Below, piece after piece: positions 7,396-36,079 of a stretch of 64,000 nucleotides of DNA. The stretch comes from a bacterium (lineage in GTDB: Bacteria; Bacteroidota; Ignavibacteria; Kapaibacteriales; Kapaibacteriaceae). A program made the position numbers and the translations under genes. The notes under the pieces were generated by a model. The model did no database searches, was not told the DNA's origin, and saw nothing but the letters and a program-made list of their open reading frames with translations. Within the stretch, counting starts at the first letter, position 1. Each line of letters opens with the position of its first letter. The stretch is taken from the NCBI GenBank assembly GCA_036840065.1, contig DAITZZ010000003.1, positions 28,378 through 92,377 of the forward strand. Reading direction: 5' to 3'.

Positions 7396-7766
7396 ACTCC
7401 CGGCTTCAGGGCATCAGTCACCACCACGTAGCCACGTTCATCGGGCGCACGCAGAACCATTTCGCGATCGAGTGCCGGATCATCGGCACGACGAAACCGG
7501 AAGACCACATCACCGTCGACGCGTAGCTCCCGTGATGACAGGATGCGCAGCGAATCACCGTCATGTATGACACGGGCACCCAATGAGTAAGCGCGATATC
7601 GCGCAGCGGAGACCTCATCATGGCGCAGAGCATCCTCATAGTAGTGCTCACTGGTAAGGTCGACACGCTGCGTCATGGCAAAGCCGACGAAGGCCAGCGT
7701 GCCACAAGCGAACATTGCATAGACGATGACGATGTTGCGTCCCCAGGTGCTGACTGACTTGCTCAT
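7320..7766 (-). CDS. FixH/CcoH family cbb3 oxidase assembly protein
   Basis: N-terminal TM helix (RNIVIVYAMFACGTLAFVGFAMT) then a ~120 aa periplasmic domain. It sits between ccoG and the DsbD_2-like gene, which is the typical FixH position. Confidence 0.7.
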   Translation of the reverse strand: MSKSVSTWGRNIVIVYAMFACGTLAFVGFAMTQRVDLTSEHYYEDALRHDEVSAARYRAYSLGARVIHDGDSLRILSSRELRVDGDVVFRFRRADDPALDREMVLRAPDERGYVVVTDALKPGVWRLEVRWTSQSKDLQIDTVVRVKS

Positions 7767-7781
7767 GCTTGTGCTCTAAAG

Positions 7782-20404: not shown

Positions 20405-21223
20405 ATGCCTCTCTGTCCCACATACCTCATCCTGCCGGTCGCGCTTCCCCGTGCCCGGGTGCTTCGCACCCTTGTGCTGTTGACCCTCGCGAGCCTGACA
20501 TGGGGGTGTGGCACGGCCTCTCAGGATCTGACATCTCGCGTGCTTTCCGATACGATCTCCGTGCGAATCGTCCCCGGACCAACCCCGGCTGCCCTGCGTG
20601 TTGTGACCGAGCAGACGAGTGTTCCGCTGCTTTCCGGAAGCACCGAAGCAGAGCTGAGAATACGTGCGGCTGATTCGACCGTGATGCGCTACCCACTTGC
20701 CTTTGCGTCCATGGGTGCGCCCGGGAGGACAGAAACGCTCACCACCATGATCACCGCCGACATTCCGGCGGAGCTCGCGGCGAATGCGCTCGAGATGAGC
20801 ATCCGCGCTACAGCTGATTCCAAGGAGCGCATCTTCTCGGTTCGTGCGCAGGTCGACACCGCAGCGTTGGAGCTGACGCCATCGATGACGAAGCAGAGCG
20901 ACGGAACCTATCAGTTCTTGTTGAGAGCAACACGCCGGCGGATCATTCCCGGAGAATACTTTCCCTCGTCGGAACAACTGCGCATTGCTATCTACAACGG
21001 CAAGGGCGCCTCGGTTTGGTCGTCGAATGATGGCATGGCCTTTCTCACGGTTGTCATGCCCGTCGAGCCGGCTCTGCAGGGGGCTTCCCATCTCTACACG
21101 CTGGACTGGAACGGAATGTCGTCGCAGGGAGCTCGGCTGCCGTCCGGACGCTACCGCGTGCAGCTCACATTGCCCGTCAGGCCGGCCCCTTACTCATGTT
21201 TTTTGGATGTAGTGCTGCCCTGA
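20405..21223 (+). CDS. Hypothetical secreted protein with a C-terminal FlgD-Ig-like / T9SS-cargo-like beta-sandwich motif
   Basis: Signal-like N-terminus (LVLLTLASLTWGCGTAS) and a C-terminal ...YTLDWNGMSSQGARLPSGRYRVQLTLPV resembling the WDGxDxxGxxxxxGxY motif of FlgD-Ig-like domains. The antisense 295-aa ORF (20204..21091) is Arg/Gly/His-rich and judged spurious. Confidence 0.5.
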   Translation: MPLCPTYLILPVALPRARVLRTLVLLTLASLTWGCGTASQDLTSRVLSDTISVRIVPGPTPAALRVVTEQTSVPLLSGSTEAELRIRAADSTVMRYPLAFASMGAPGRTETLTTMITADIPAELAANALEMSIRATADSKERIFSVRAQVDTAALELTPSMTKQSDGTYQFLLRATRRRIIPGEYFPSSEQLRIAIYNGKGASVWSSNDGMAFLTVVMPVEPALQGASHLYTLDWNGMSSQGARLPSGRYRVQLTLPVRPAPYSCFLDVVLP

Positions 21224-21227
21224 CGCC

Positions 21228-22310
21228 ATGACCGTTTCAAGTTCCCATGATGAATGGATGCGCAGGGCGCTCCTACTAGCACAACTTGGTTCGGGCCGTG
21301 TGTCCCCTAACCCGATGGTGGGCTGCGTTATCGTCCACGATGACACGGTAATCGCCGAGGGCTGGCACTCGGCCTATGGCGAACTGCATGCCGAGACCGA
21401 CGCGCTGCGCCACCTCAACGGTATCGCCACCGGCGCAACGATGTATGTAACTCTCGAGCCGTGCACCCATTATGGGAAGCAACCCCCGTGCATCGACGCC
21501 ATCATACGAAGTGGTGTTGCACGCGTGGTCGTTGCCATGATTGACCCGAACCCACTGGTCTCGGGTCAAGGCATTGAACGTCTGCGCGAGGCGGGAATTG
21601 AGGTGATCACCGATGTGCTGCATGACGAGGCGGCCTACCTCAACCGCAGGTTTCTGCACTGGATGCGCAGTGGCTTGCCCCATGTTACGTTGAAGCTGGC
21701 AACGTCCCTTGACGCCAGGGCGCAGATGCCACCGGGCCAGCCGCGCTTTATCACATCCGCTGAGAGCCGGTTTCACGTCCACAAGCTCCGGGCCTGTGTC
21801 GATGCGGTGATGATCGGCATCGGAACGGCTCTGTACGACAACCCCGAACTGACCGTTCGGCTGTGTCCGGGACGTAACCCCGCACGCGTCGTGATCGACT
21901 CGATGTGCCGTTTGCCAACGAGCACGACGCTCGTAGCTACCGCCCGCGAAACACCTACCATCATCATCTGCTCCGACAAGTCAGATCGCGATGCTCGCGA
22001 AGAATTGCGCAACCAGGGGGTGGACGTTATCGTCGTGCCCACGCGGGAAGAACGAACGATCCTGACCGAAGACATCCTACGCGTGCTTGCAGAGAGGAAG
22101 ATCACTTCGGTGATGGCCGAAGGGGGCCCCTATCTGGCGGCACGGCTGCTGCGCGACGACGTTGTCGATGAGCTTCACTTCCACGTTGCCCCTGTGATGA
22201 TCGGAAGCGGGCCCAGCTGGGTCTTCGATACGGCGTTCCGCAGATGGATGCTGCGCGAACACCGCCATGTGGGACAGGATATCCACATGCAGTATGTTCG
22301 CAATCGATGA
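21228..22310 (+). CDS. ribD: Bifunctional riboflavin biosynthesis protein RibD (deaminase/reductase)
   Basis: Cytidine/dCMP deaminase zinc motif HAETDALRHLNGIATGATMYVTLEPCTHYGKQPPC, followed by a RibD C-terminal reductase domain. Confidence 0.9.
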   Translation: MTVSSSHDEWMRRALLLAQLGSGRVSPNPMVGCVIVHDDTVIAEGWHSAYGELHAETDALRHLNGIATGATMYVTLEPCTHYGKQPPCIDAIIRSGVARVVVAMIDPNPLVSGQGIERLREAGIEVITDVLHDEAAYLNRRFLHWMRSGLPHVTLKLATSLDARAQMPPGQPRFITSAESRFHVHKLRACVDAVMIGIGTALYDNPELTVRLCPGRNPARVVIDSMCRLPTSTTLVATARETPTIIICSDKSDRDAREELRNQGVDVIVVPTREERTILTEDILRVLAERKITSVMAEGGPYLAARLLRDDVVDELHFHVAPVMIGSGPSWVFDTAFRRWMLREHRHVGQDIHMQYVRNR

Positions 22311-23644
22311 CTACCCTCCGCGCGATTCTGATTCTCATGTTCGGCTTTTGCAGCCTGCCATGCATGCTGCCGGCGCAGACCACACCCAAGGTCATGTCCG
22401 AGCCCGTACAGAGCGCCCTCATCAAGCAGGACTGGAAAAGGGCCGAACGTGTTCTGCGAAGCGAGCTGCGCAGTAATCCCCGTGATCTGGATCGTCAGAC
22501 GCTTCTTGCCATCTGCCTGATGCGTCAGCAGAAGTTCGACGCGGCCCTGCGACAAGCCGAACTCATCACCCGTAGTCATCCACAGGCCTACGCAGCTCAC
22601 ATGATCGCAGCTGAATGTCACATGAGGCTTGGTCAGACAGATAAAGCTCTCGACATCTTTCGGTTGGCTCGCACGATCGCCCCCGACTCTGCAGAACCGG
22701 CAATGGCTCTGGGCATGATCCTTTCGAGCACCGGACGATTCGACGAGGCCATCACCTTTCTCGAGGAGTCACTCTTTCGCCGTCCCGGCAACATGCCCCT
22801 GACCATGCAGCTGGTTCGTTGCTATCTGCGCCTGGGTCGGGCATCGGAAGCTGCCGAGCTTGCCACGCGTGCCGCGGAGCTGGCTCCCGGTGATGCGAAC
22901 GCGCAGATGATGGCCGGCGAAGCGCTGATGGCATCACGCCGAACCGAACAGGCAATCGACTTTCTGCAACAGGCCATACGTCTTGGCGTCGGATCGTCAT
23001 CACCGCACATGCTGCTGACCATCGCGCTGCAAGACAATGGCCGAACCGACGAGGCGCTCGCCGTTGCCAGAGCATACGTCCAGGGCTCACAGGATGACCC
23101 TCAGGGATGGTACAATGTGGGACTGCTGCAGTTAGAGAAGATGCAGCTTGATTCGTCGTTGCGCTCTCTCAAAAAAGCCGTCGGTCTCAAGCCCAACTAC
23201 CCGGAAGCATACTACAACCTCGGACGCGTCTACGATGGACTGGGGTTTGGCGAGGACGCCATTCAGTCGTACCGCCGGGCTGCTGCGACGGGCGGAAACT
23301 TTGCCGCCGATGCCTATCTCGGAATGGCACTTATCTATCGCAAATCTGGAAACTTCACTGAAGCGATCCGTGCACACAGCCAGTCGGTATCGCTGCGGGA
23401 CACCTCCCAGGTGATGCGCGTGCAGCGCCTACAGACATGTTTCGAGGCTGATCGATGCGCCGACGCATCGGGATTTATCGACAAGGACGTGCGTGACTTC
23501 CCCACCAGCCCCGGAGTGCTGTTCGAAGCAGCGCGGTGCTTCGCTCGCACGGGACGGCGCAGCGACGCCGAACGCATTCTGACGTTTCTCGATAAAGAGT
23601 CGCCGGCGCTTGCCAGGGATCTCCGAATCTTCATGAGTCTGTGA
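22307..23644 (+). CDS. TPR repeat protein with signal peptide
   Basis: The start is Met22 (MTTLRAILILMFGFCSLPCMLPAQ), overlapping the ribD stop (ATGA). Multiple 34-aa TPR units follow (…AYAAHMIAAECHMRLGQTDKALDIFRLA…, …AYYNLGRVYDGLGFGEDAIQSYRRA…). Confidence 0.8.
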   Translation: MTTLRAILILMFGFCSLPCMLPAQTTPKVMSEPVQSALIKQDWKRAERVLRSELRSNPRDLDRQTLLAICLMRQQKFDAALRQAELITRSHPQAYAAHMIAAECHMRLGQTDKALDIFRLARTIAPDSAEPAMALGMILSSTGRFDEAITFLEESLFRRPGNMPLTMQLVRCYLRLGRASEAAELATRAAELAPGDANAQMMAGEALMASRRTEQAIDFLQQAIRLGVGSSSPHMLLTIALQDNGRTDEALAVARAYVQGSQDDPQGWYNVGLLQLEKMQLDSSLRSLKKAVGLKPNYPEAYYNLGRVYDGLGFGEDAIQSYRRAAATGGNFAADAYLGMALIYRKSGNFTEAIRAHSQSVSLRDTSQVMRVQRLQTCFEADRCADASGFIDKDVRDFPTSPGVLFEAARCFARTGRRSDAERILTFLDKESPALARDLRIFMSL

Positions 23645-26445
23645 TGTTGTTACGACTGCTCGGCCTGCCATCTGTCATGGCTCTGTGCGCGGCGCTTGCT
23701 GTGCTGTCAACTTCGATACTGCCGGCACAGAACAAGCCCGCATACCAGCACTCTGAAGCACACCGCCGTCTGCTCCATGGAGTCGACACTGCCCTTTCGG
23801 TCCTTGGCATGCGCATGGCCGATCTTTCCATGCCGGCCGACCTTCTGGACCGCGATCGGCACCGGAACGCCTTTCATGATCGCCTGTTTGACGACCCTCT
23901 GGCAAGCATGGCGTGGACTGATACGATCGCCGCAAAGCTTATCGCCCGCCAGGATAGCACATGGCGTCAGGTGCATGCCTCCCTGGTCACTGCACTTGGT
24001 TCATACGGTCGAAGGCCCCAACCGCTAGCAGACGAGAGTTCGCCGATTCGCTATCCGCCCGAGATGGAGCGTGCTGCACGACGTCTCAATACGACCTCGC
24101 GCAGACTCCTCGACCGCTACATCATCGGTACATTCAAGGCCGCTGCGGTCGCCATGAACGTGACGCAGCTTCAGCCAACAATGAACCCAGGGCTTGAACT
24201 ATCGAGCTTTAAGAAGCAGCTTGATTCGATGTGGACGCCATCGTCGGAGGACGACAAGCTCACCCTCTGGCAGGTGTACGACGGTGAACAACGCAGCCGA
24301 GAATCCACGGATGCAGTGAATCGATCTCTAAGCACAGTTCTGAATGAGTCGCTCAATGACATGGGCATGGCGGTCTACCTTGATATCCTTGAGCAGAACG
24401 CGCAGGCTCTTCGTAACCATGCTGGCCTTCTGGATTCGGTGAAGAGCGTTGTTTTTCAGACCAGCGTCGGCCGCATAGCCATCGGCGGCAGAGGCACGGA
24501 CCTCTACACTGGATCGTATGCGCTGATCATTGATGTTGGCGGCAATGATTCCTATGACCTGGCATCGTCGGACTCAGCGATGACGCAGATCATCATCGAC
24601 ATGGACGGTGATGATGTTTATCGAGGTCAGGACCACACACTCGGCTCGGGTCATTTTGGCATCGGCGTTCTGATAGACCATGCCGGCGATGATCAGTACA
24701 CCGCGCGAGATTTTGCTCTCGGATCTGGCGTGTATGGCTTTGGCATTCTCCACGATATGGCTGGCAACGATGTCTATCGCAGCCGTTCTAACTCCCAGGG
24801 GGCAGGCATTGTCGGCATGGGAATGCTGCTTGATGACTCAGGGCACGACCTCTACGTCTGCGCCTCGCAGTCTCAGGCCTTTGGTGCCACGCGTGGCGTT
24901 GGGATCCTGAGCGACAACGCCGGCAATGACCGATACATCGCCGTGAGCCCCTTTGCTGATGTTCTTCGATACGATGACCACCAGGTTTCGTTTGCGCAAG
25001 GGGCTGCCCTGGGTCATCGACCAACGATGTCCGGAGGTATCGGTCTGCTTGTTGATGCCTCCGGCAACGACCTCTACTCCTGCGACATCTATGGTCAGGG
25101 CACTGGATACTGGTTTGGACTTGGAGCCCTCATCGACCTCGGGGGAGACGACCGATATGATGCGTATCAGTATGCTCAGGGCTCCGGCGTTCATTTTGCT
25201 GTTGGCCTTCTGACGGATGCAAGCGGTGAAGATGTCTATCGTTCTCACGGCGTGTCGCAAGGCTGCGGACACGACATTGCCACGGGACTGCTTCGAGATC
25301 ACGCCGGTAACGACACGTACATGTGTGAGAGTCTCTCACTCGGGGCCGGCAATGCGAACGCCGTCTCAATCCTCTATGATGAATCGGGCCAGGACAGCTA
25401 CAGCGCCTTGAATGAAAGCAACACCATCGGTTACTCTGACATGCGTCGCGGCTACGGGATGATCGGGCTGTTCATTGATGGCGGAGGCCGCGACCGATAT
25501 GGCGAGACACTTCGCAATGACACGGTAGTGGCAAAGTCGACCTACGGCCTGTTTCTCGATGCCGAACTTGATGGCACGCAGCGCAGTTCGTCACAGACCC
25601 CGCCGTCGGCTTCGTCCTACACGCTGACTTCCAGCATCGACAGTTTGTTTATCCAGGCTTCGGCCTCTCATCTCCGGTTTCAGAACGCCGTGTCCCCGGC
25701 ACGGAAGGAACTGGGCAAGCGCGGACAACCGGCACTCGCATTCCTCGAAACACAGCTTTCAACTCAGATGCCACGTGAGCGCCTGACGTTGGAGATCGTG
25801 CTTCCCGATCTGTATGCAAGTGACCGTGATTCGACCATAGCTCTACTCAGGCGCGGCCTGCTGTCGGACGATAACGCCTCGGTCACCATCGCAGCGACAG
25901 TCGCGGGCAAGGTCAAGTGCCGAGAACTGGTTTCGACGCTTACGGACATGGTTTCGAGTGCTTCATGGCGTCGACGTCGGCTTGCCGTCGCCACACTTGG
26001 CGAGATCGGAGACTCGGCCAGTATTCCTGCCTTGAGAGCGGCCTGCAAGGACGTGCATCCATACGTGCGTCAGCGCGCGGCAAGCGCATACACGCGATAC
26101 GTCAGCAGCGACGATCCGTTGCTGGCAACGTTGCTCGCTGACACGCTGCAGGTTGTTCGCATGGCCGCTGTCGAGGGCCTTGCGCGCGGTGCAAAGCGCC
26201 CCCTCTCATCGATCTTACCGCTTATTGATGGACACGCAGATCAGCGGTCGTTGCCATCTATGATGCGTCTGCTGGCTGCATCGGATACAACAGCATCTGA
26301 TATCGACACCTTCACGCAATGGTGGTCACGGCAGGATGACTCTCGGAAGGGGCTCGTACGGCGCATCAGCGCGGCAGTGCCTGGCCCACTGATCCGTGTC
26401 ATGGATGGCACGACGAGTTCGTCGCCGACGGAACCGAGGAAATGA
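23641..26445 (+). CDS. Large secreted protein (934 aa): signal peptide, ~13 tandem ~26-aa Asp-rich repeats (G-x-G-[IL]-L-x-D-x-[AS]-G-[ND]-D-x-Y), C-terminal HEAT/PBS-lyase-like repeats
   Basis: N-terminal signal MMLLRLLGLPSVMALCAALAVLSTSILPAQ. Repeats include GSYALIIDVGGNDSYDL / GIGVLIDHAGDDQYTARDFALGSG / GFGILHDMAGNDVYRSRSNSQGAG / GMGMLLDDSGHDLYVCASQSQAFG / GVGILSDNAGNDRYIAV / GIGLLVDASGNDLYSCDIYGQGTG / LGALIDLGGDDRYDAYQYAQGSG / VGLLTDASGEDVYRSHGVSQGCG / TGLLRDHAGNDTYMCESLSLGAG / GLFIDGGGRDRYGE. The C-terminal HEAT-like helices (…RRRLAVATLGEIGDSASIPALRAACKDVHPYVRQRAASAY…VRMAAVEGLARGA). The start overlaps the TPR gene stop by 4 nt. Confidence 0.75.
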   Translation: MMLLRLLGLPSVMALCAALAVLSTSILPAQNKPAYQHSEAHRRLLHGVDTALSVLGMRMADLSMPADLLDRDRHRNAFHDRLFDDPLASMAWTDTIAAKLIARQDSTWRQVHASLVTALGSYGRRPQPLADESSPIRYPPEMERAARRLNTTSRRLLDRYIIGTFKAAAVAMNVTQLQPTMNPGLELSSFKKQLDSMWTPSSEDDKLTLWQVYDGEQRSRESTDAVNRSLSTVLNESLNDMGMAVYLDILEQNAQALRNHAGLLDSVKSVVFQTSVGRIAIGGRGTDLYTGSYALIIDVGGNDSYDLASSDSAMTQIIIDMDGDDVYRGQDHTLGSGHFGIGVLIDHAGDDQYTARDFALGSGVYGFGILHDMAGNDVYRSRSNSQGAGIVGMGMLLDDSGHDLYVCASQSQAFGATRGVGILSDNAGNDRYIAVSPFADVLRYDDHQVSFAQGAALGHRPTMSGGIGLLVDASGNDLYSCDIYGQGTGYWFGLGALIDLGGDDRYDAYQYAQGSGVHFAVGLLTDASGEDVYRSHGVSQGCGHDIATGLLRDHAGNDTYMCESLSLGAGNANAVSILYDESGQDSYSALNESNTIGYSDMRRGYGMIGLFIDGGGRDRYGETLRNDTVVAKSTYGLFLDAELDGTQRSSSQTPPSASSYTLTSSIDSLFIQASASHLRFQNAVSPARKELGKRGQPALAFLETQLSTQMPRERLTLEIVLPDLYASDRDSTIALLRRGLLSDDNASVTIAATVAGKVKCRELVSTLTDMVSSASWRRRRLAVATLGEIGDSASIPALRAACKDVHPYVRQRAASAYTRYVSSDDPLLATLLADTLQVVRMAAVEGLARGAKRPLSSILPLIDGHADQRSLPSMMRLLAASDTTASDIDTFTQWWSRQDDSRKGLVRRISAAVPGPLIRVMDGTTSSSPTEPRK

Positions 26446-28043
26446 TCGGCCATCATCTCACGCTTGAGCACATCGCACGGGAACTGAGTACTCTTCTCTG
26501 CGGTGCAACATTGGTGCGCGCATGGTCACAGCAGAAGGGTGTGGCCACGCTCGTTTTTGCCATGGGGTCAGATGAGATTCCGGTGGTCATCGACGTGCAT
26601 GCGAAGGATGCCTCGATCACGGTGCGTCAGAGTGCGCAGCGCGCGCTGCGCAATTGTATCGACATTTTTCCGGGGTTACTTGGCCAGAGTCTCGGCGCTG
26701 TGGTGAAACTCGAGCACGACCGGGTTATCAGCTTCATCTTTTCCCATGATGTCCTCCATGTAGAGCTTTTCAGCGCTGGCCGCGGCAACATCCTCTGCTG
26801 CCATGAGGCCATGGTGACCGATGCGCTGCACCGGAGGACGGAGCGCATCGGGCATGCCTTTTCGACGTTGCCTCGGGTCTCTGCCGAGCCTCTCGTTCGC
26901 GCTGAACTGACGCTGCTGCAGGATCTGTCAACGTGTGCGCATCGACTTGGCAAGCACTACGCGGAAGAAGTCTGCATCCGTGCCGGACTCAGCCCGTCGC
27001 TGCTGGTCGAGCAGCTCTCGGCAGATCAGCGAGAGCTCGTCACGGCATGCGTAGTGTCGCTCCTGGAGCAGTGCCGGACGTGCACGCAGTATCTAATCCT
27101 GCGGCGCGGCGACGACGTGCTGCTGTCGCTCATCCCGCTGCATGGCTGGCAGGTCGGCGAGAGTCATGACTCGGTGCTCGAGGCTGTGCGCATTGTCTCG
27201 TTCCGACGCCGCTCGGATCGTACATTTCGTGATGAACAGCAGCGTCAGCTGCGGTCGATCGACGCTCTGATCGGCAAGATCAGCCGCACCCTGCAGGCCG
27301 TTCTCGGCGATGAGGATGCTACGGGGCGCTCTGGTCGCTATCGCTCATGGGCTGACACACTGATGGCTCAGCAGGATATTCAGCGCACCGGGATGAATCA
27401 CCTCGAACTTGTTAACGTGGTCAGCGGCGAATCGGAGACGATTCCACTGCGGCGGGAATCGACGATTCTCGAAAATGCCACGGCGCTCTATGCCAAAGCT
27501 CGTGATGCCGAGCAGGCTGCTCGACGTCGAGAGCAGCGCATTCCGGAATTGCGACGTCGACTCGACGACCTCTACGGTGAGCGCAATCGTATCGCAGCAG
27601 CCCGGTCGCTTTCGGATCTCCCTAAACACCCGCCAGCCATGGATAACCAGCAGAACACTCGTACTCCCGTTTTCAGGGAGTTTCGACTTGATGACAAACA
27701 CACGCTCTATGTCGGCCGCAGTGCGGCAAACAACGACGAGCTAACGATGAAGTTTGCGCGGCAGCAGGACTGGTGGATGCACGTGCGGGGCGCGAGTGGT
27801 TCACATGCTGTGCTGCGGGGAGTGAGCGGTCCGAAGATCCCGAAGCAGATCCTAGAAGCAGCGGCGGCCATCACCGCCTATTACTCGCAGGCGCGCAATG
27901 CCTCCTACGTTCCTGTCGTTTACACGCAGCGCAAGTACGTCCGCAAGCCCAAGGGGGCGAACGTTGGAGCAGTAGTGATCGACCGCGAGCAGACCGTCAT
28001 GGTGCGTCCGTCTCTGCCCGAGGGCGCGATCAGCGAAGAATGA
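26442..28043 (+). CDS. NFACT-family protein (RqcH / FbpA-like ribosome quality control protein homolog)
   Basis: NFACT-N-like N-terminus (LEHIARELSTLLCGATLVRAWSQQKG…VELFSAGRGNILC), a central coiled coil (ARDAEQAARRREQRIPELRRRLDDLYGERNRI), and a C-terminal NFACT-R/DUF814 domain (LDDKHTLYVGRSAANNDELTMKFARQQDWWMHVRGASGSHAVLRG…AAAITAYYSQARNASYVPVVYTQRKYVRKPKGANVGAVVI). The start overlaps the preceding stop by 4 nt. Confidence 0.75.
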   Translation: MIGHHLTLEHIARELSTLLCGATLVRAWSQQKGVATLVFAMGSDEIPVVIDVHAKDASITVRQSAQRALRNCIDIFPGLLGQSLGAVVKLEHDRVISFIFSHDVLHVELFSAGRGNILCCHEAMVTDALHRRTERIGHAFSTLPRVSAEPLVRAELTLLQDLSTCAHRLGKHYAEEVCIRAGLSPSLLVEQLSADQRELVTACVVSLLEQCRTCTQYLILRRGDDVLLSLIPLHGWQVGESHDSVLEAVRIVSFRRRSDRTFRDEQQRQLRSIDALIGKISRTLQAVLGDEDATGRSGRYRSWADTLMAQQDIQRTGMNHLELVNVVSGESETIPLRRESTILENATALYAKARDAEQAARRREQRIPELRRRLDDLYGERNRIAAARSLSDLPKHPPAMDNQQNTRTPVFREFRLDDKHTLYVGRSAANNDELTMKFARQQDWWMHVRGASGSHAVLRGVSGPKIPKQILEAAAAITAYYSQARNASYVPVVYTQRKYVRKPKGANVGAVVIDREQTVMVRPSLPEGAISEE

Positions 28044-31000
28044 TCAGCAACGTGCGGCTCTGGCCCACGCGCAGGATGTAGGTCCCCTGCTCAAGGGCCG
28101 ACACATCGACTCCCTGCTCGGTCTGCGACGCAGGCAGCTGCCGCTGGTATACTACGCGTCCGTCCATAGCGGTGATCGAGATATCATGCAGGCCTCTGCC
28201 CGATCGGATGTGGATCATATCAGACGCCGGGTTGGGACCAACGTCGATGTTGTGGACAGACGAGCCCTCCGCGACGCTGACCGGCAGACCGGAGTATGTC
28301 ATCATGATCTGCGTGGGTGTAAGCAGCCCCCTATCGACATTGGCCGACACACCGGACTGGTTCAAGCGAAGAAAACCATTGTCGTTGATGCGTGCTGCGG
28401 ACCATTCCTCCGAGGTGCTCCACGACGAGCGAGTCAGGATGCCGTACGTCCTGTCAGTCGAATCATCGGCAAGAGCGCGTCGATCGCAGGAAAGACGCAT
28501 CCGTGCCAGCTCAGCGCCTCGCTGCGGACCAAAGACGTTCAGCACACGCCAGCTATGTTCAAGAGGATTCTGCTGTCCTGTCGCTCTGGCACCGGCTACC
28601 CGGTCAAAGGTGGTCATCACCAGTTCCACGTCGTCTGTAAGGGGCTTCTGGAGCTCGACGGTGTCCTCGGCAAATCCCGCCTGCCGAGCCCCCTTGGCAA
28701 GCCGCACGAGCTCGCTCGAACCGGACGCCACAAGTGCGCCCGAGGCGATGGGCCCGGAGCCCGATTGATAGCTCCCGTCGCGGCCGGCAACTTTGTCGTA
28801 GATCACTCCTCGTGAGCCCTCATTGAACTGGTAGTAGGCCATCAGTCCCTCGTCACCGCGACGTCGGGTAAGGTGCATGGATGTCCTGACGTCGAATTCG
28901 GTTAGACATCGGCTGTAGAGCGACACCTCGTCGATGGAGCCCGAGAAATTGCGGTCGCTCCAGTAGTGATAGGTTCCGAGCGTGAACACCAGTGATGACA
29001 GATCCAGTTTCGGCAGAGACGTTGCATCCTTGCTACCGATGCCATTGACGTACACCGTCGCACCGGTGCTGTCAATGGTCAACGCCACATGTGACCATTC
29101 ATCAGGGCGGAGGGTAAGACCCGAGCCCCACCACCATCGACCTCCTGACCAGAGGTATCCGAGCTCATTACGATCATTGACAAACTGCAGTCCTATTTCC
29201 TGCGATACACCGGGATCAGCATCCGTGCAGAGGATCGCCGAAAAATTGGGCTGCATGCCAACGGGCTTGACCCAGGCCGTGAAGCTGAACTCGCGCGTGG
29301 TGCCGGAGTAGCGGCCCAGCGTGATATGATCCTGCGCACCCGACAGGTCTGCCGCATTGCCTGCTTCGGCTGCGAAGACCTCGCACTCACTCGGCAGCAC
29401 CGTGATGGCATCCTTCATCAATGCTGTGTCGGCTCCGTATTCGTTCTCAACGATGAGACGCACGTCATACGTGCCGGGTGCTGAGTAGAGGACGTTCACA
29501 ACCGGGAGGGCAGACTCCGACGGCTTACCCGATGGGAACTGCCAGCGACGTCGGAAGGCCGCAGTTTCAATGGCCGCTGACCGGCAGCCGAACCGCACGG
29601 GATGGCGCGCACATCGAACGGTATCGGTGTCCATCGAGATCAATGCACGGGGCTTGGTCGACATGGGGAGATCGATCTGCCACAGTCCGCGGTTGGTAGC
29701 GATGCGAAGTCGGGATCCCGGGTCATCAATGTGCAGGAAGTTCACATCGGAAATGGGAAGCCCCCTACCGAAGAGGGCCCACCTGGTTTGCGGCGTGTAC
29801 CGATAGACGCCATAACTCGTCCCGGCGTAGAGTTCACCCGATGTGCCGCGGCGGCTCACCAGCGTGAAGATCGCGAACGCTGGAAGCCCGTCAGAAAGCG
29901 ATGCCCAGGTCTGTCCTGCATCGGAGGTTTCGGCAACCTTCACCTTGTTTTGATTGCCTCCAAAGGCCACGTACAGTCGAGAGGAGACGTCGTCATCGAA
30001 GGCAACATCTACCATTCCCTGCCCACGAGAAACACTCTCCTTCGGCGTGATATTCGTCCAGCTCACTCCGGCATCAAGACTCTGCCAGAGCTCAGCGTCG
30101 GCAATAGCAACAATGTGATTGCCATTCTCGGGGTGCACACGCACGCGTGATACGTAGCGTGCAAACGTCTTCAGCGTCGTCCACGAGCTGGCATTATCGT
30201 CGCTGAGAACCACGCGTTGTGTGGCGTGATCAGCGGCAATGATGCGGAAGTAGCGCACCGGGTCGAACTCGATGTTGTTCATCGTCAGATAGCCAAGATC
30301 GATTCCCAGCTCCGAGGAGGAAGGGGGCAGAAGCTTTGATCGCGTGCGTCGCACGCGGACGTTGCCCCAGGGCTTGGCATAGATCCATTCACTGGCAACC
30401 GGGTTGACGTTTGCACCCATGGCGTCTGCCCCGGCCCACGGATACCAGCCTCCCATGGGGAACTCAGCCGTGTAGACGGTCGTGTCACGAAAGAACGTCG
30501 GCAGGTGATAGGCCCCCATGGCCATGATGTGTCCGTCGTGCGACTGATCAAAGCCCCAGACCTCCGCGGCACTGATGCCGAAACTGCGCTCGGAGATCGA
30601 CCCGCCGCGGTTACTGCTGAGTGTTATCCCGCCGTCATGCGTAAGCCAGACCGAATCGCCGACAACCGATGCGGATTGAATGTCGTAGTGCATCGGAGGA
30701 AATGTTCGCCAGTTGCGACCACCGTCGCTGGAGCGATACGGGAAAATGCCGGCAGCAACCATGAACTGCGGATCCCGCGATGAGATCGCAAACCCCATAT
30801 CCCAGGTGACCTGTCCCAGCCCCTTGCCGTCGATATCGTAGTCGAAGATATTCGGGTTCGTCCCACGGTTCGTTGCTTCCGGACCGTCAACGTTTCCGCA
30901 GCAGCGGTGCTCAAAGGTCGACCCTTCATCGGTGGAAACGTACAATCCATAGACGCCGCCGAATTCACCGGCAGAGCCGGCGATCATGACGCTTACCATC

Positions 31001-32022
31001 CCGGGCGATGCCGGCGTGACGGCCAGCAATGCCCGCGCCATCGACATGCCTGGCCGAGCAGCCGGATAGCCCTGACCAGTGGGATTGAACTTCACGCCCG
31101 AGCTTGTTGACCTCACGAAGCTGATGTGCGATTCGATCTGCACGAGGCCGTAGGCAACGTCACTGCGCTCGGGATGCCACAGCAAGTCCCACCATGTGCC
31201 GATCATGTTGCTGGCCGACTTCCATGTCGATCCTGCGTCGGTCGACAGGAACAAACGTCCGATCGTTGCAATCACTACACGCCGGGCATTGTTCGGGTCG
31301 ACGGCGCAGAGATCCACTGCCACCGCCTGCGTAAGGGCAAGGTCCCCCTCGAGAGAAACGCGACGAAACGTCAGCCCCGTGTCGGTAGACACGTACAGGC
31401 CGGCGCTGGTGGCGGCATACACCGTATCGTTCGCAACCGTGAACCGTTGAACACTCTGGATCGGCTCGTCCTGAGCGATCGCCGACCAGGTGCGCCCGGC
31501 ATCCGTGCTGCGCCATATGCCGGCAGAAATCGTTCCAGCAAGAATCAGCTCCGGCTGCCCGGGCCAGACAAGATGTGTTCGCACCACACCGATGCCCTGC
31601 GAACCGGTCTGCAGCACGGCGTCCGTGTCCCAGCCGAATGGACCGAGGGCCTGCCACTGTGGCTCAGAGCTTTGCACATTCTCCGAGGCACTCTTGCGCC
31701 GAAGGGACTCGCGCAGGATCTCGCCGATTGGCGGCCTCAGGGGGCCGATGTTGCCGCGCGCGTCAGCGTGAGGGAGACGTTCGGAGATCCAGCGCCGAGC
31801 CGCGCGAACCTGTCTGCTCGCCCCCTGACCGTGCGTGGAAGAGTCCCGCTGCAGAAGCGTCAGGACATCGAAGACATTGGGATGGTCGGCCTCGACAAGC
31901 CGATACCACTGCGAATGACGGTGTTGAGGATTATCCGGCAGACGCTCATCGTTGCGACTCGCTCCGGCCGCAGCCGACGTCAGCAACGGCAGAAGAATGA
32001 CGAGAAACGCATAAACCGGCAT
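28030..32022 (-). CDS. Giant secreted protein (1330 aa): BNR/Asp-box beta-propeller repeats, LamG/ConA-like domain, T9SS C-terminal sorting domain
   Basis: Signal peptide MPVYAFLVILLPLLTSAAAGA. At least 8 Asp-box motifs (STDAGRTWSA, STDTGLTF, STDAGSTWKS, STDEGSTFEH, SSDGGRNWRT, SDDNASSWTT, SLDAGVSWTN, TSDAGQTWAS). A LamG-like segment (…GLQFVNDRNELGYLWSGGRWWWGSGLTLRPDEWSHVALTID…). The C-terminal T9SS tail GPNPASDMIHIRSGRGLHDISITAMDGRVVYQRQL…GTYILRVGQSRTLLIILR. Confidence 0.85.
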   Translation of the reverse strand: MPVYAFLVILLPLLTSAAAGASRNDERLPDNPQHRHSQWYRLVEADHPNVFDVLTLLQRDSSTHGQGASRQVRAARRWISERLPHADARGNIGPLRPPIGEILRESLRRKSASENVQSSEPQWQALGPFGWDTDAVLQTGSQGIGVVRTHLVWPGQPELILAGTISAGIWRSTDAGRTWSAIAQDEPIQSVQRFTVANDTVYAATSAGLYVSTDTGLTFRRVSLEGDLALTQAVAVDLCAVDPNNARRVVIATIGRLFLSTDAGSTWKSASNMIGTWWDLLWHPERSDVAYGLVQIESHISFVRSTSSGVKFNPTGQGYPAARPGMSMARALLAVTPASPGMVSVMIAGSAGEFGGVYGLYVSTDEGSTFEHRCCGNVDGPEATNRGTNPNIFDYDIDGKGLGQVTWDMGFAISSRDPQFMVAAGIFPYRSSDGGRNWRTFPPMHYDIQSASVVGDSVWLTHDGGITLSSNRGGSISERSFGISAAEVWGFDQSHDGHIMAMGAYHLPTFFRDTTVYTAEFPMGGWYPWAGADAMGANVNPVASEWIYAKPWGNVRVRRTRSKLLPPSSSELGIDLGYLTMNNIEFDPVRYFRIIAADHATQRVVLSDDNASSWTTLKTFARYVSRVRVHPENGNHIVAIADAELWQSLDAGVSWTNITPKESVSRGQGMVDVAFDDDVSSRLYVAFGGNQNKVKVAETSDAGQTWASLSDGLPAFAIFTLVSRRGTSGELYAGTSYGVYRYTPQTRWALFGRGLPISDVNFLHIDDPGSRLRIATNRGLWQIDLPMSTKPRALISMDTDTVRCARHPVRFGCRSAAIETAAFRRRWQFPSGKPSESALPVVNVLYSAPGTYDVRLIVENEYGADTALMKDAITVLPSECEVFAAEAGNAADLSGAQDHITLGRYSGTTREFSFTAWVKPVGMQPNFSAILCTDADPGVSQEIGLQFVNDRNELGYLWSGGRWWWGSGLTLRPDEWSHVALTIDSTGATVYVNGIGSKDATSLPKLDLSSLVFTLGTYHYWSDRNFSGSIDEVSLYSRCLTEFDVRTSMHLTRRRGDEGLMAYYQFNEGSRGVIYDKVAGRDGSYQSGSGPIASGALVASGSSELVRLAKGARQAGFAEDTVELQKPLTDDVELVMTTFDRVAGARATGQQNPLEHSWRVLNVFGPQRGAELARMRLSCDRRALADDSTDRTYGILTRSSWSTSEEWSAARINDNGFLRLNQSGVSANVDRGLLTPTQIMMTYSGLPVSVAEGSSVHNIDVGPNPASDMIHIRSGRGLHDISITAMDGRVVYQRQLPASQTEQGVDVSALEQGTYILRVGQSRTLLIILR

Positions 32023-32037: not shown

Positions 32038-34155
32038 TCAGTCGTTGAGGATCATGAACTCGACGCGTCGGTTGCGGCGTCGGCCATCTTCTGTTGCGTT
32101 ATCGTAGATAGGCTTTGACGCTCCATAAGCCATAACCGTCATGCGCTTTTCGTCGATGCCCTTTGCCACGAGATACTCCTTCACCGACGTCACGCGAAGA
32201 CGCGACAGCTCCTTATTCGCCGCTGCGCTGCCGACGTTGTCTGTATGCCCGCCCAGCTCGACGGTGATCCGCGGCTTGTCCTTGAGAAACTGCACAAAAC
32301 GGTCCAACTCGGCGAACGATTCCGGACGGATCGTTGCCATGCGGAACTCGAAGAACAGGTTATTGAGCGTCACCACCTGATTCTTTACGATCGGTGCCAG
32401 GAAGAGATCCTTGTTGATCTCCGAATACTCCGAGAGCTTTCGCGTGTCCAGCTGATCACTCACCGGATAGAAGCCGTCAAGCTCGGCGCGGAAACCATAG
32501 AGGTCGCCCACCGGAAGAACGATCGAGTAGGCGCCGTTGGTTGGTTCAGAGCGGGCAATGCCGACTTCTTTTCCCTTGGTCAGACTCTCGTAGGTGACGG
32601 CGGCGGCAAGGGGCTTTTTCGTAGCAGCATTGAGTACTCGCCCACTGATAAGGGCCACGGGAAGGGGCTTGAGACCCTTTGCCAGCTTTATTCGATACAG
32701 ATCCGAGCTTCCGTCTTCGGGACTTGCAGCGCTGAAGTATGCGTAGTCGGCCTTTGCCGGAATGGTAAAGTAGGCATCCCACGTCGGTGTATTGATCACA
32801 GGACCGACGTTCTTCGGCTCGCTCCAATTTGTCCAGGTGTCATCGAGGCGACGCGACATCCAGATGTCCATATCGCCGTATCCCTTGCGTCCATCAGTGG
32901 CGAAGAAGACCGTCGATCCGTCGGCAGCGATGAACGGAGATATCTCATTGCCCCATGTATTGAGCGACGGACCGCAGTTGACCGGTTCGGTGAACATGCC
33001 ATTGCTTTTGCGACGCGAGATGTAGAGGTCCTTCTGCCCGAGTCCGTCACTTCGCTGCACAGCCATCATCAGAATCATCCCCGTCGGATCGAGGCACAGC
33101 TCGGAGTATTCATCTTCATTGTAATACTTGTCGACCTTGACCTCCGTCGGGATACTCCAGCCCCTATCTGTCATGTACGTCGCCGAAATGCCCGATCCCT
33201 TCGGGGCACCGTTGGAGTAGTAGGTGTTGCCAATGATCGCAGAGTTGCGATCGGGCGCTATGCTGACCAGAAAATTCGAACTGTAGTTGTTCAGCGGCGG
33301 GCCCTGGTTCTTTGCCGGACCCCACGTGCCATCGGGCTGAAGATCGGTGTACCAGATGTCTTCCGTTGCCGTATCGCCGATGTTATCACGGTGCGGATAG
33401 CGACCGAAATACAGGCGCTTGCCGTCTGCAGTGATCACCGGAGAGATGTCACCGCCCGTGCTGTTGACCTGCGGACCAAGACTCTCCGGCTCGCCGAGGA
33501 CGATCTCATCCTCGATGATCCTGATGGAATCCTGTGCCTGGCGGATGTGCATTTCGTCGACCTCTACAACAACCTGAGGACCGACGATCAGGCCGATCTT
33601 GCTCCCGAAAATCGGAGGGGGCTGAAAGGCAAACAGCGTCGCACCGTTGAACAGAACGCTCATGCCCAGGCCGCGCTTGCGAACCGTGATGGTAAACCAG
33701 GTCTGCATCGGTGGCAGGCCCTCGAACGGCGTCCACGGCTGCACATCCGTCACGCTACCGTTGCGCAGCGAATACACACGGTAGCGACCGGAGCCGCTGA
33801 TCAGCAGGGCGTTATGACTGAACCCTTCGCGCGCACCCCAGAAAAAACCGAACGCTGAATTCGTCGTCCCGGTGACCTGACGGAGCTTGAGCTCAACGTC
33901 GAAGTCCTTGCCGTAGTCCAAAAAGTACCCCACTTCGCTGAGCAGGTCAGATGTGGCCGAACGCTGGTCGATCCGATACACGCCGGAGACCACCGACGCA
34001 CTGCGTCCCAGCGAGCCCCCTTCGATCCAGCCCCCCACGTTCTCGTCGAACGGATCGTGGTACGCAACTGGCAATGGTTGGGCAAATGCGGCCGCAGCCG
34101 ACATCACCAGTAGTGCCGGAAGAAGGAGGAATCTCTGTATGCGATGCGTGATCAT
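32038..34155 (-). CDS. OmpA-family protein with TolB-like PD40 beta-propeller repeats and C-terminal OmpA peptidoglycan-binding domain
   Basis: Signal peptide MITHRIQRFLLLPALLVMSAAAAFAQ (Met27 of the track ORF). PD40-type repeats (…RLYFGRYPH…, …STVFFATDGRKGYGDMDIWMS…). The C-terminal OmpA motif TVELGGHTDNVGSAAANKELSRLRVTSVKEYLVAKGIDEKRMTVMAYGASKP…NRRVEF. Confidence 0.85.
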   Translation of the reverse strand: MITHRIQRFLLLPALLVMSAAAAFAQPLPVAYHDPFDENVGGWIEGGSLGRSASVVSGVYRIDQRSATSDLLSEVGYFLDYGKDFDVELKLRQVTGTTNSAFGFFWGAREGFSHNALLISGSGRYRVYSLRNGSVTDVQPWTPFEGLPPMQTWFTITVRKRGLGMSVLFNGATLFAFQPPPIFGSKIGLIVGPQVVVEVDEMHIRQAQDSIRIIEDEIVLGEPESLGPQVNSTGGDISPVITADGKRLYFGRYPHRDNIGDTATEDIWYTDLQPDGTWGPAKNQGPPLNNYSSNFLVSIAPDRNSAIIGNTYYSNGAPKGSGISATYMTDRGWSIPTEVKVDKYYNEDEYSELCLDPTGMILMMAVQRSDGLGQKDLYISRRKSNGMFTEPVNCGPSLNTWGNEISPFIAADGSTVFFATDGRKGYGDMDIWMSRRLDDTWTNWSEPKNVGPVINTPTWDAYFTIPAKADYAYFSAASPEDGSSDLYRIKLAKGLKPLPVALISGRVLNAATKKPLAAAVTYESLTKGKEVGIARSEPTNGAYSIVLPVGDLYGFRAELDGFYPVSDQLDTRKLSEYSEINKDLFLAPIVKNQVVTLNNLFFEFRMATIRPESFAELDRFVQFLKDKPRITVELGGHTDNVGSAAANKELSRLRVTSVKEYLVAKGIDEKRMTVMAYGASKPIYDNATEDGRRRNRRVEFMILND

Positions 34156-34183
34156 GGGAATCCCGATGACGTTATCCGTCAAA

Positions 34184-36079
34184 CTAATCCTCGAGGTATG
34201 TGTACCCGTAAAGTCCGGAACGGTAGATCGCAAGGAACTCCTTCCCTTCCTGTACGGTGATCTTCTTACTCTTGACCGACGCGCTCACCCATGCTTCCAT
34301 CGTACGTACAAGTTTCTTGGCATCAAACTGCACATAGTCAAGAACGTCGGCCACGGTCTCACCGTGAATGATCTGTTCGATTTCGTACTTATCACCACGA
34401 ACCGTCACGTGCACCGCGTTCGTGTCGCCGAAAAGGTTGTGCAGATCGCCCAAGATCTCCTGGTACGCCCCGACGAGGAAGACGGCAAGGTAATACTCCT
34501 GGCCCGTAACCAGCGGGTGCACCGGAAGCATAGACGTATAATCACGCGTTCCAATGAAATGATCGACCTTGCCGTCCGAGTCGCAGGTAATGTCCTGCAA
34601 CGTTGCCATGCGCGTAGGACGTTCCTGCAGGCGGTGGATCGGCATGATCGGGAACAGCTGATCGATGGCCCACGAATCTGGCAGCGACTGGAACAGCGAG
34701 AAATTGCAGAAGTACTTATCGGCAAGAAGCTTCGGAAGGGATCGCAACTCTTCGGGAACAACCTTGAGCTCACCGGTCATTTCCGAGATACGCTGCGCTA
34801 TGGTCCAGTAAAGCCGTTCGACCTGGGCGCGCGTGCGAATGTCGATCAGTCCCAGCGAAAATCGGTCGAGCGTTTCCTCCCGCAGCTGCTGCGCATCGTG
34901 CCAGGCCTCGAGCATGGTGCGGCTGTTGAGAGCCGTCATGATCTCGTGCAGCTCACGAACCAGTTCGTGATCTTTCTTCGACACGCGGTCGCGAGAGCTC
35001 CATGTTGGCACGCTGGCCGTCTCAAGGACGTTGAAGACCAGCACCGAGTGATGCGCCGTCAGCGCACGGCCGGACTCGGTGATGATATGCGGATGCGGAA
35101 GAGAGGCCTTCCCTGCCGCGTCGGTAATGGCACTGATGGCATCGTTGGCGTACTCCTGAATCGAGTAGTTGATGCTTGAGGCAACGCTGCTGCGCGTACC
35201 GTCATAGTCGACGCCCAGGCCGCCGCCGATATCGACGAATTCAATCTGACAGCCCATGGCCATCAACTGGACGTAGAACTGCGAGACCTCGCTCAGTCCC
35301 TGCTTGATCTTGCGGATGTTCGTGATCTGCGATCCGAGGTGGAAGTGGATCAGCTTCATGCAGTCAAGCATGTCGCTGGCGCGGGCGTACTCGACCGCTT
35401 CGAGAAGTTCCGAAGCATTCAGACCAAACTTTGACTGGTCGCCCCCTGACTCTTCCCACTTGCCGCTACCGCTGGAGGCGAGCTTGATGCGGATACCGAT
35501 ATTGGGCCGCACTCCGACACGCTTCGACACCTCGTTGATCAGACGCAGCTCGTTGAGTTTCTCCACAACAAGAAAGATGCGCTTGCCCATCTTCTGCGCC
35601 AGCAGCGCAAGCTCGATGAACTCTTCGTCCTTGTAGCCGTTGCAGACGATCAGCGCTTCGCTGTTGTCCATGATCGCCAGCACGGCATGCAGTTCCGGCT
35701 TCGAACCGGCCTCGAGACCGATGTTGAACCGTTTTCCGTGGCGTACTAATTCTTCGACCACCGGACGCTGCTGGTTGACCTTGATCGGGTATACACTGTA
35801 GTACGTCCCGGTGAACTCGTACTCGGCGGCAGCCTTCTTGAAGCACTCGGAGATCTTCTCGATGCGGTCATCGAGAATATCCGGGAAGCGCAGCAAGACC
35901 GGAGAGCTGACGTCACGCAGCAACAACTCATCGACCAATTCCTTCAGGTCGATCTGTGGCCCCTTGGTCTTGCGCGGGGCAGCCACCACGTGACCTTTGG
36001 AATTAATCCCAAAGTAGCCGATTCCCCAGCCGGGTACATTGTATACCTCGAGGGAGTCCTCAACGCGCCATTTGCGCAT
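34184..36079 (-). CDS. speA: Biosynthetic arginine decarboxylase
   Basis: MRKWRVEDSLEVYNVPGWGIGYFGINSKGHVVAAP… and a full-length (~630 aa) fold-III PLP decarboxylase. The start is Met43 of the track ORF; the upstream part of that ORF overlaps the divergent fur region. Confidence 0.9.
   Translation of the reverse strand: MRKWRVEDSLEVYNVPGWGIGYFGINSKGHVVAAPRKTKGPQIDLKELVDELLLRDVSSPVLLRFPDILDDRIEKISECFKKAAAEYEFTGTYYSVYPIKVNQQRPVVEELVRHGKRFNIGLEAGSKPELHAVLAIMDNSEALIVCNGYKDEEFIELALLAQKMGKRIFLVVEKLNELRLINEVSKRVGVRPNIGIRIKLASSGSGKWEESGGDQSKFGLNASELLEAVEYARASDMLDCMKLIHFHLGSQITNIRKIKQGLSEVSQFYVQLMAMGCQIEFVDIGGGLGVDYDGTRSSVASSINYSIQEYANDAISAITDAAGKASLPHPHIITESGRALTAHHSVLVFNVLETASVPTWSSRDRVSKKDHELVRELHEIMTALNSRTMLEAWHDAQQLREETLDRFSLGLIDIRTRAQVERLYWTIAQRISEMTGELKVVPEELRSLPKLLADKYFCNFSLFQSLPDSWAIDQLFPIMPIHRLQERPTRMATLQDITCDSDGKVDHFIGTRDYTSMLPVHPLVTGQEYYLAVFLVGAYQEILGDLHNLFGDTNAVHVTVRGDKYEIEQIIHGETVADVLDYVQFDAKKLVRTMEAWVSASVKSKKITVQEGKEFLAIYRSGLYGYTYLED

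Follow-up and report, generated by a model that had tools for sequence, protein, structure and literature searches.

Which protein is encoded by the Asp-rich repeat gene at positions 23641 to 26445 of this stretch of DNA, and what might it contribute to the cell that makes it? We refer to the whole analyzed stretch, 64 kb from a genome of the Kapaibacteriaceae, as the window; position numbers are those of the window, and residue numbers those of the 934-aa open reading frame (ORF) read from its GTG codon. From the sequence alone, the locus had been singled out (the original prediction) as coding for an unrecognized secreted protein with about 13 Asp-rich repeats and C-terminal HEAT repeats. 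Our analysis places the protein in a large uncharacterized family of the Fibrobacterota-Chlorobiota-Bacteroidota (FCB) superphylum. The explanation that we prefer, and that we hold as a whole to be slightly on the probable side, is that of a Sec-exported, soluble envelope protein in which a beta-solenoid would carry a ladder of Ca2+ ions, coils 7-12 would offer a polymer-binding face, and a HEAT module would act as the partner.

An uncatalogued repeat shared by a large protein family

The repeat unit, mostly 26-27 residues long, reads [FY]-G-x-G-[ILV]-L-x-D-x-x-G-[ND]-D-x-Y-x(5-6)-Q-G-x-G, so that G-x-G-[ILV]-L stands before a D-x-x-G-x-D-x-Y turn. The gene, the region built from these units and its most conspicuous irregularity are located as follows.

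23641..26445, + strand: whole gene, 934-aa ORF from GTG 23641, with the stop codon at 26443-26445
24463..25563, + strand: predicted 13-coil parallel beta-solenoid, aa 275-641, delimited by motif register, shuffles, the AlphaFold2 model and the nearest PDB neighbours
24946..25032, + strand: conserved insertion of about 20 residues in coil 7, aa 436-464, SPFxDVLRYDxHxVxFxQGAALGxRP, from the alignment of 46 homologs and the AlphaFold2 model

Twelve copies of the motif D-x-x-G-x-D-x-[YF], at aa 298-620, follow one another at intervals of 22, 26, 26, 26, 27, 47, 27, 27, 27, 27, and 33 residues; the single 47-residue unit is due to the coil-7 insertion. Together with a degenerate first unit (GGRGTDLY, aa 282-289), this makes 13 units. 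When the repeat region was shuffled 20,000 times with its composition preserved, no shuffle exceeded three motif matches, and elsewhere in the six frames of the window the motif occurs once. These data bear out the ORF with some 13 regular Asp-rich repeats that had been proposed, although its repeat span, given as roughly residues 290-620, has to be redrawn to about aa 275-641. When the units are placed in register, G-x-D-x-Y is present in all 13 and the first Asp in 12, while the position between G and D is occupied by N in five units and by D in three. The invariant aromatic residue of the original prediction thus stands (Tyr in 13 of 13 units); its invariant Asp triad does not, and is replaced by an Asp pair plus an N/D position. 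At the DNA level, no tandem repeat was detected in the gene by TRF, and the repeat cores share a mean DNA identity of 0.49; a recent expansion of the repeat by DNA duplication is rejected on these grounds. Since it is not visible in the DNA, the repeat is ancient and has been preserved at the protein level. The window contains no second copy or paralog of the gene.

Scans of the protein against Pfam and NCBIfam gave no match outside the HEAT region, and none of 19 solenoid homologs matched any Pfam family, even at E <= 10. Searches of PDB sequences with the single sequence and with a full-family profile recovered the HEAT part only, and a profile of the solenoid family found no match there (best E 1.3). 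Our literature search for a solenoid-HEAT family yielded no description of one. As had been anticipated, the Pfam models for RTX, LbH, pentapeptide, FG-GAP, and VCBS repeats do not match. The full RTX motif GGxGxD occurs once in the protein, at aa 282, and the FG-GAP, TSP3, and MpAFP (G.G[ND]D) motifs do not occur in it at all; G-x-D-x-[aromatic/hydrophobic] is present 13 times. The assignment to an unrecognized family has therefore withstood the profile, PDB, and Foldseek searches aimed at finding an established family for the repeat, none of which returned a confident match.

A HMMER search with the repeat region collected 3,592 cluster representatives (clustered at 50% identity) at E <= 1e-3, and 1,718 of them at E <= 1e-30; relatives are encoded in at least 549 GTDB species genomes. 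The best 80 species genomes with a relative are nearly all metagenome-assembled genomes (MAGs) of Kapaibacteria, Ignavibacteria, or Chlorobiota, and distant members come from candidate division WOR-3, Cloacimonadota, Zixibacteria, and unclassified 'FCB group' bins. All named family members are called 'hypothetical protein' or 'HEAT repeat domain-containing protein'. Full-length homologs share 35-70% identity with the window protein, which itself combines the features by which we delimit the family: an N-terminal domain (N-domain), a 13-coil DxxGxDxY solenoid, and HEAT repeats that are either fused or encoded by the next gene. Variations on this layout occur; the HEAT repeats of the member P0225 lie on the N-terminal side of the solenoid, and in the distant members P0220 and P0236 a Beta_helix/NosD (CASH-type) domain replaces the N-terminal region. 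These findings demonstrate that the solenoid-HEAT family is real and uncharacterized. Its fold class (a parallel beta-solenoid with acidic turns) and its HEAT repeats are of known kinds; what is uncatalogued is the type of repeat, the N-domain, and the dedicated exported pairing of solenoid and HEAT modules. With a single copy in the window, a wide distribution over species genomes, and a position among housekeeping genes, the gene appears to be of housekeeping character.

A predicted three-stranded solenoid and its nearest relatives

We built an AlphaFold2 model of the full-length protein from a 46-sequence family alignment (mean predicted local distance difference test (pLDDT) score 84.4, predicted template modelling (pTM) score 0.82) and a model of the solenoid alone (pLDDT 84.9, pTM 0.88). 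The full-length model consists of a signal-peptide helix, an all-alpha N-domain (aa ~36-266), the beta-solenoid (aa 270-640), a disordered linker (aa 642-659), and a HEAT solenoid (aa 666-922). Each coil of the beta-solenoid comprises up to three strands, two of them long and one short. The beta-solenoid fold suggested from the sequence is hence also what AlphaFold2 confidently predicts. Foldseek searches of the PDB with the full-length model returned HEAT and ARM proteins only; the solenoid-only model had no significant match in the PDB and no match among viral structures (BFVD). Its best PDB neighbour is region IV of MpAFP, a beta-helical antifreeze/ice-adhesin domain that depends on Ca2+ (3p4g; E 0.06, TMq 0.43, TMt 0.50) and the second-best the RTX domain of CyaA, neither of them significant. 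Matches to TibA, Ag43, pectate lyases, and pectin methylesterases had E values from 0.4 to above 4 and TM scores of at most 0.25; for the pectate lyases and pectin methylesterases alone, E exceeded 4 at a TM of about 0.2.

The turn of the repeat, G-[ND]-D-x-hydrophobic, equals the second half of the RTX nonapeptide GGxGNDxUx (PF00353; CyaA RTX blocks, 7rah and 6sus), and one would expect a similar logic, by analogy, of acidic turns whose folding around Ca2+ awaits export. However, the PF00353 profile is matched neither by the protein (E <= 1) nor by 19 homologs (E <= 10), the complete GGxGxD is found just the one time noted above, and an RTX beta-roll has two turns in an 18-residue two-sided roll, whereas the solenoid described here has one turn per 26-27-residue three-stranded coil. 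RTX proteins use a C-terminal signal for the type I secretion system; the window protein carries an N-terminal Sec signal peptide.

MpAFP of Marinomonas primoryensis is part of a giant RTX adhesin at the cell surface, and its region IV consists of 13 repeats of 19 residues with x-G-T-G-N-D Ca2+-binding turns aligned along one side (PMC3918373). Both this region and the modelled solenoid are parallel 13-coil beta-solenoids with one ...G-N-D turn per coil on one side. They differ in that the MpAFP coils have 19 residues, compared with 26-27 and a third strand in the window protein; the MpAFP motif G-x-G-[ND]-D is absent from the latter, and the match is non-significant at 16% sequence identity. 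Moreover, the window protein starts with a Sec signal peptide and a helical N-domain and is combined with a HEAT partner, and no Thr-rich ice-binding face is evident in it.

Right-handed beta-helix and CASH proteins (PF13229, PF05048, pectate lyases, autotransporter passengers) resemble the solenoid in being exported and in having three-stranded coils of roughly 22-27 residues, and a Beta_helix/NosD domain precedes the solenoid in some distant family members. Nevertheless, no Pfam match connects the two groups, and the TibA, Ag43, and pectate lyase structures are non-significant neighbours. To our knowledge, these families lack a regular ladder of Asp, Gly, Asp, and Tyr in each coil.

The HEAT module is the partner of the solenoid

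The C-terminal HEAT/PBS-lyase-like repeats recognized in the original prediction were confirmed. They are separated from the solenoid by a stretch of low complexity.

25564..25626, + strand: low-complexity Ser/Thr/Pro linker, aa 642-662, with pLDDT < 50 at aa 642-659 and an occupancy of 0.25
25627..26415, + strand: C-terminal HEAT-repeat domain of the PBS-lyase/alphaRep type, aa 663-925, about 14 helices, from Pfam, PDB, and AlphaFold2

The domain scores above the Pfam gathering cut-offs for PF13646 (HEAT_2; E 6.7e-12, 46.0 bits against 27.7) and PF02985 (HEAT; 27.8 bits against 23.5), alphaRep HEAT structures match it at E 5e-18 with the single sequence and at 5.6e-59 with the family profile, and it also matches PP2A-A; the AlphaFold2 model shows paired helices at aa 666-922. 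It is thus a bona fide member of the PBS-lyase/alphaRep-type HEAT repeats (PF13646). The named proteins among the HEAT matches (NblB, phycocyanobilin lyase, YibA) are cytoplasmic, whereas the module studied here is exported, with a signal peptide of its own when separate, and dedicated to a beta-solenoid partner.

To determine which genes accompany the solenoid, we used loci from species genomes with enough flanking DNA. HEAT repeats directly follow the solenoid in the same protein in 72 of 72 loci. In six independent loci from other phyla, the solenoid protein is 567-661 aa long and devoid of HEAT repeats, and in every one of them a separate HEAT_2 gene (277-332 aa) lies downstream on the same strand, within two genes. 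This gene is adjacent to or overlaps the solenoid gene in four of the six loci; in the other two, the intervening genes are a ParE toxin gene together with two small unannotated ORFs in one case and an SDR gene in the other. In the three split pairs that were read (L086-L088), the solenoid and the HEAT protein each carry a hydrophobic N-terminus that resembles a signal sequence. The HEAT proteins of these pairs begin with a DSLF..AS motif, which is found at aa 667-675 of the window protein, right after the linker; the linker is the point of fusion or fission between the two modules. The HEAT repeats are therefore an obligate partner module of the solenoid, either fused to it or encoded by the next gene. 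Because the same modules are found fused, split, and permuted across phyla, these sequence comparisons provide strong evidence for a functional unit of two components outside the cytoplasm. Directly upstream of the split solenoid gene of L088, we noted three small prepilin-type (N_methyl) genes on the same strand (6741-7838 of that locus), an arrangement that was seen in none of the other contexts.

A conserved face on coils 7-12

Conservation was computed for a set of 140 sequences, made up of the query and 139 representatives at 50% identity, and it is unevenly distributed along the solenoid.

24892..25455, + strand: coils 7-12, aa 418-605, with a face conserved beyond the scaffold, from the conservation over 140 sequences

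The Asp, Gly, Asp, and Tyr of the turns that form the scaffold are at least 95% conserved throughout. The number of conserved residues beyond this scaffold is 0-3 per coil in coils 1-6 but 4-9 per coil in coils 7-12, where they all lie in the segment after the Tyr. Q453, G454, G458, Y490, W491, Q510, H518, H544, and D545 are conserved to at least 95%, and R460, P461, R602, and R603 to 85-95%. Within the coil-7 insertion, P437, D440, L442, R443, Y444, H447, F451, Q453, G454, G458, R460, and P461 are invariant in the 46 close homologs. Since conservation in coils 7-12 goes beyond what a generic scaffold needs, a binding groove or active site is to be sought there; judged from the alignment, this face and the coil-7 insertion probably form a functional site, i.e., a ligand-binding or catalytic surface. 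The types of residue involved (aromatic, amide, His/Asp, and Arg) would be compatible with glycan recognition or catalysis.

Gene start, export signal and N-terminal domain

The start region of the gene reads ...CTG TGA TG..., in which ATG 23644 overlaps the stop codon of an upstream TPR gene (TGATG). The database protein P0001, which is 100% identical to the window protein, comprises 933 aa. On account of this length and of the overlap with the TPR stop codon, the true start is probably ATG 23644 (933 aa) and not GTG 23641. Two further ORFs, of 154 aa (24838-25302, - strand) and 110 aa (23696-24028, + strand), lie across the gene, antisense to it or in a different frame; these are shadow ORFs, as GC-rich coding DNA produces them, and there is no support for them as genes.

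23641..23727, + strand: type-I signal peptide, aa 1-29, with a basic n-region, a hydrophobic core and a c-region ...LPA|Q, judged by inspection
23728..24441, + strand: N-terminal all-alpha domain, aa 30-267, seen as AlphaFold2 helices with pLDDT mostly 85-95

The signal peptide is composed of MLLR, 22 hydrophobic residues, and PA|Q. By inspection, 39 of 46 homologs keep a basic n-region and a hydrophobic core, with [A/G/S]-Q closing the c-region, and an n/h/c organization with a small residue at -1, as expected of a Sec signal peptide cleaved by SPase-I, is present by this heuristic. There is no lipobox (L-x-x-C) and no conserved Cys at the cleavage region across the 46 homologs. The Pfam scan of the protein gave no match to a C-terminal sorting domain of the type IX secretion system (T9SS; Por_Secre_tail PF18962 or similar), and the protein ends with the HEAT repeats and a short Ser/Thr/Pro tail. 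From the signal peptide and the lack of both a lipobox and a T9SS C-terminal domain, such heuristics would make the protein periplasmic or assign it to the inner face of the outer membrane. They support the location put forward in the original prediction, which is strengthened by the signal-like N-termini on each half of the split forms.

The N-domain contains the conserved motifs LDxALxxLGMxxxDLxMPxDL...HR..FHD.LF..P and DSLW..S.EDE..SLW; otherwise, it resembles the HEAT domain in being weakly conserved in sequence (mean column identity about 0.2). No Pfam match at E <= 1 was obtained for any of 20 N-domain homologs, and a family profile of the N-domain found nothing usable among PDB sequences (best E 0.019, to a designed repeat).

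A proposed calcium-ladder solenoid and the alternatives to it

In the explanation that we prefer, the D-x-x-G-[ND]-D-x-Y turns would be stacked along one corner of the solenoid, in register, to form an acidic ladder that chelates a row of roughly a dozen Ca2+ ions at predicted sites, and the Tyr residues would form a ladder in the core. As with RTX beta-rolls and MpAFP region IV, the solenoid would become rigid only once Sec has exported it. The face of coils 7-12 and the coil-7 insertion would then bind, and possibly process, a polymer of the periplasm or the cell surface, most likely a glycan, and the HEAT solenoid would either engage a protein partner or help to clamp this ligand; the neighbouring TPR and NFACT genes stand outside the system. 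Cation binding by the turns is plausible by analogy, since the nearest solved structures are Ca2+-bound solenoids, though the matches to them are non-significant. Several observations weigh against this explanation. The period of 26-27 residues departs from that of RTX (9/18) and MpAFP (19), Pfam gave no match to a carbohydrate-active family for the protein and 19 homologs, and the gene neighbourhoods provide no consistent functional clue. Furthermore, part of the coil-7 insertion (aa 439-450) is modelled at low confidence, and the cleavage of the signal peptide was judged by eye, so that an uncleaved N-terminal membrane anchor is possible. A more far-reaching version of the proposal appears doubtful to us: the His/Asp/Arg/Trp face of a new class of Ca2+-ladder solenoid would be the active site of a new periplasmic enzyme or chaperone-like machine with an exported HEAT subunit, at work in a core process of the envelope (related to glycans, the outer membrane, or the T9SS) common to Ignavibacteriota/Kapabacteria, Zixibacteria, WOR-3, and Cloacimonadota.

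Could the acidic ladder do without calcium? If the Asp residues were purely structural (Asx-type turns, hydrogen-bond ladders) or bound a cation other than Ca2+, the protein might be an inert, rigid spacer or scaffold, and the period and the first half of the turn, unlike every validated Ca2+ repeat, as well as the sub-threshold Foldseek likeness to Ca2+ solenoids would agree with this. We regard it as quite unlikely, given that the two Asp residues and the N/D position are at least 95% conserved in nearly every coil over the 140 sequences, and that, as a general principle, clustered or buried carboxylates stacked without counter-ions would destabilize the fold; G-[ND]-D-x-hydrophobic is, besides, the metal-ligating half of the RTX motif. 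The conserved face itself (His518, His544, Asp545, Arg460, Arg602-603, Tyr490, and Trp491) could instead belong to a beta-helix enzyme (a lyase, epimerase, or hydrolase like pectate lyases or AlgG) whose substrate is a polysaccharide of the envelope or outside the cell, with the Asp/Ca2+ sites and His/Asp/Arg residues in catalysis. AlgK and AlgG are a periplasmic pair of a TPR and a beta-helix protein, and both the exported TPR protein upstream in 27 of 64 loci, which recalls such pairs, and the N-terminal Beta_helix/NosD domain of P0220 and P0236 fit an enzyme of this kind. Yet neither the protein nor, at E <= 10, any of 19 homologs matches a carbohydrate-active or beta-helix Pfam family, the Foldseek matches to pectate lyases and pectin methylesterases are as poor as stated above, and genes for polysaccharide synthesis are not consistently nearby, which leaves a polysaccharide enzyme an unlikely reading.

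For an accessory role in the T9SS or in the biogenesis of the outer membrane, the arguments come mainly from gene neighbourhoods. In a second clade (about 10 of 85 loci, e.g., L057), genes for a PorU-like Peptidase_C25, PorV, and a PMT_2 glycosyltransferase lie directly upstream and a gene for a small protein with a T9SS C-terminal domain downstream; the window gene is near genes for a PD40+OmpA protein (PorE-like architecture) and a T9SS cargo protein; split forms adjoin TatC (L089) or a Patatin-POTRA-Omp85 gene (L090); and the family does not extend beyond phyla of the FCB superphylum. These adjacencies, however, are found in a minority of loci and differ between clades, T9SS cargo genes are so numerous in these genomes that being next to one carries little weight, no Bacteroidia or Flavobacteriia model organism is among the matches listed, and we know of no T9SS component with a solenoid-HEAT architecture; a role of this type is accordingly very unlikely in our view. 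What remains is a single operon-encoded system with the flanking TPR and NFACT (RqcH-like) genes. In the window, overlaps of 1-4 nt connect the three genes (4 nt between the 3' end of the solenoid-HEAT gene and the NFACT start), and the arrangement recurs in many Kapabacteria and Ignavibacteria. Constant co-occurrence, which had been suggested as a check, was not found: NFACT is downstream in only 38 of 63 informative loci, and the upstream TPR gene in the 27 of 64 mentioned above. The split-form loci lack NFACT altogether (0/6), and a TPR gene is near a split form once, in the Zixibacteria-like locus L089, where it is non-adjacent and of generic repeat similarity only. Throughout the clade, synteny extends over the entire neighbourhood of 15 kb, with RibD, PNP, guanylate kinase, and YicC among its genes, so that the adjacency reflects an inherited order of genes at the level of the lineage. 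NFACT acts on cytoplasmic ribosomes, whereas the solenoid-HEAT protein is exported. This reading is largely refuted and retains hardly any probability; a functional link to TPR or NFACT was rejected on the basis of the co-occurrence counts and the split-form contexts.

Neighbouring genes

The syntenic block of the NFACT loci contains genes for an E1 dehydrogenase, guanylate kinase, YicC, PNP, a conserved hypothetical protein, RibD (upstream in 38 of 64 informative loci), sometimes TPR, the solenoid-HEAT protein, NFACT, a T9SS cargo protein, PD40-OmpA, and arginine decarboxylase. The neighbours in the window that we inspected are the following.

20405-21223, + strand: 272-aa ORF with a hydrophobic N-terminus, between a PNP-family gene and RibD
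22244-23644, + strand: TPR protein upstream of the solenoid-HEAT gene, 466 aa as listed, 445 aa from ATG 22307
26442-28043, + strand: 533-aa NFACT protein (NFACT_N + NFACT-R_1/R_2, RqcH-like ribosome quality-control factor), directly downstream
28030-32022, - strand: 1330-aa T9SS cargo protein (Sortilin/BNR, PKD, Laminin_G_3, Por_Secre_tail), convergent to the gene cluster
32038-34233, - strand: 731-aa PD40+OmpA protein, convergent to the gene cluster

The TPR product read from ATG 22307 begins with MTTLRAILILMFGFCSLPCMLPAQ; this N-terminus resembles a signal peptide ending in A-Q, and the TPR protein thus appears from its sequence to be exported as well. The PD40+OmpA architecture resembles that of the T9SS component PorE. 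The 272-aa ORF is found at the same position in 40 of 85 related loci, where its counterparts have no precomputed Pfam match. In L057 (MAG chromosome OZ123195; 172-6766 and 10598-17140 of the locus), the PorU-like Peptidase_C25 has 1362 aa, and the solenoid-HEAT gene also precedes one for a protein of more than 1973 aa that has no Pfam match and no copy of the repeat; about 10-15 other loci are arranged similarly.

RibD is also joined to the family itself in some gene calls. In the P0122 cluster (1265-1267 aa, three contigs), RibD (deaminase + RibD_C) and the whole solenoid-HEAT protein behind it are called as a single in-frame fusion, and in L073 (6081-10016) one ORF spans RibD and the solenoid-HEAT gene. 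As a cytoplasmic enzyme ahead of a signal peptide is implausible, this recurrent fusion is probably an in-frame read-through in gene calling.

Implications

At the least, the N-domain and the solenoid repeat merit domain models of their own, which would improve the annotation of thousands of 'hypothetical' or 'HEAT repeat' proteins. The conserved face supplies defined residues for mutation, and the fusion and fission with an exported HEAT protein offer a clean two-component system to test. If the explanation that we prefer is true, the repeat represents a new sequence class of calcium-stabilized beta-solenoid, with one RTX-like half-turn per 26-27-residue three-stranded coil, that is absent from Pfam, NCBIfam, and the PDB; its bearer would be an envelope protein of several poorly studied, mostly uncultured phyla.

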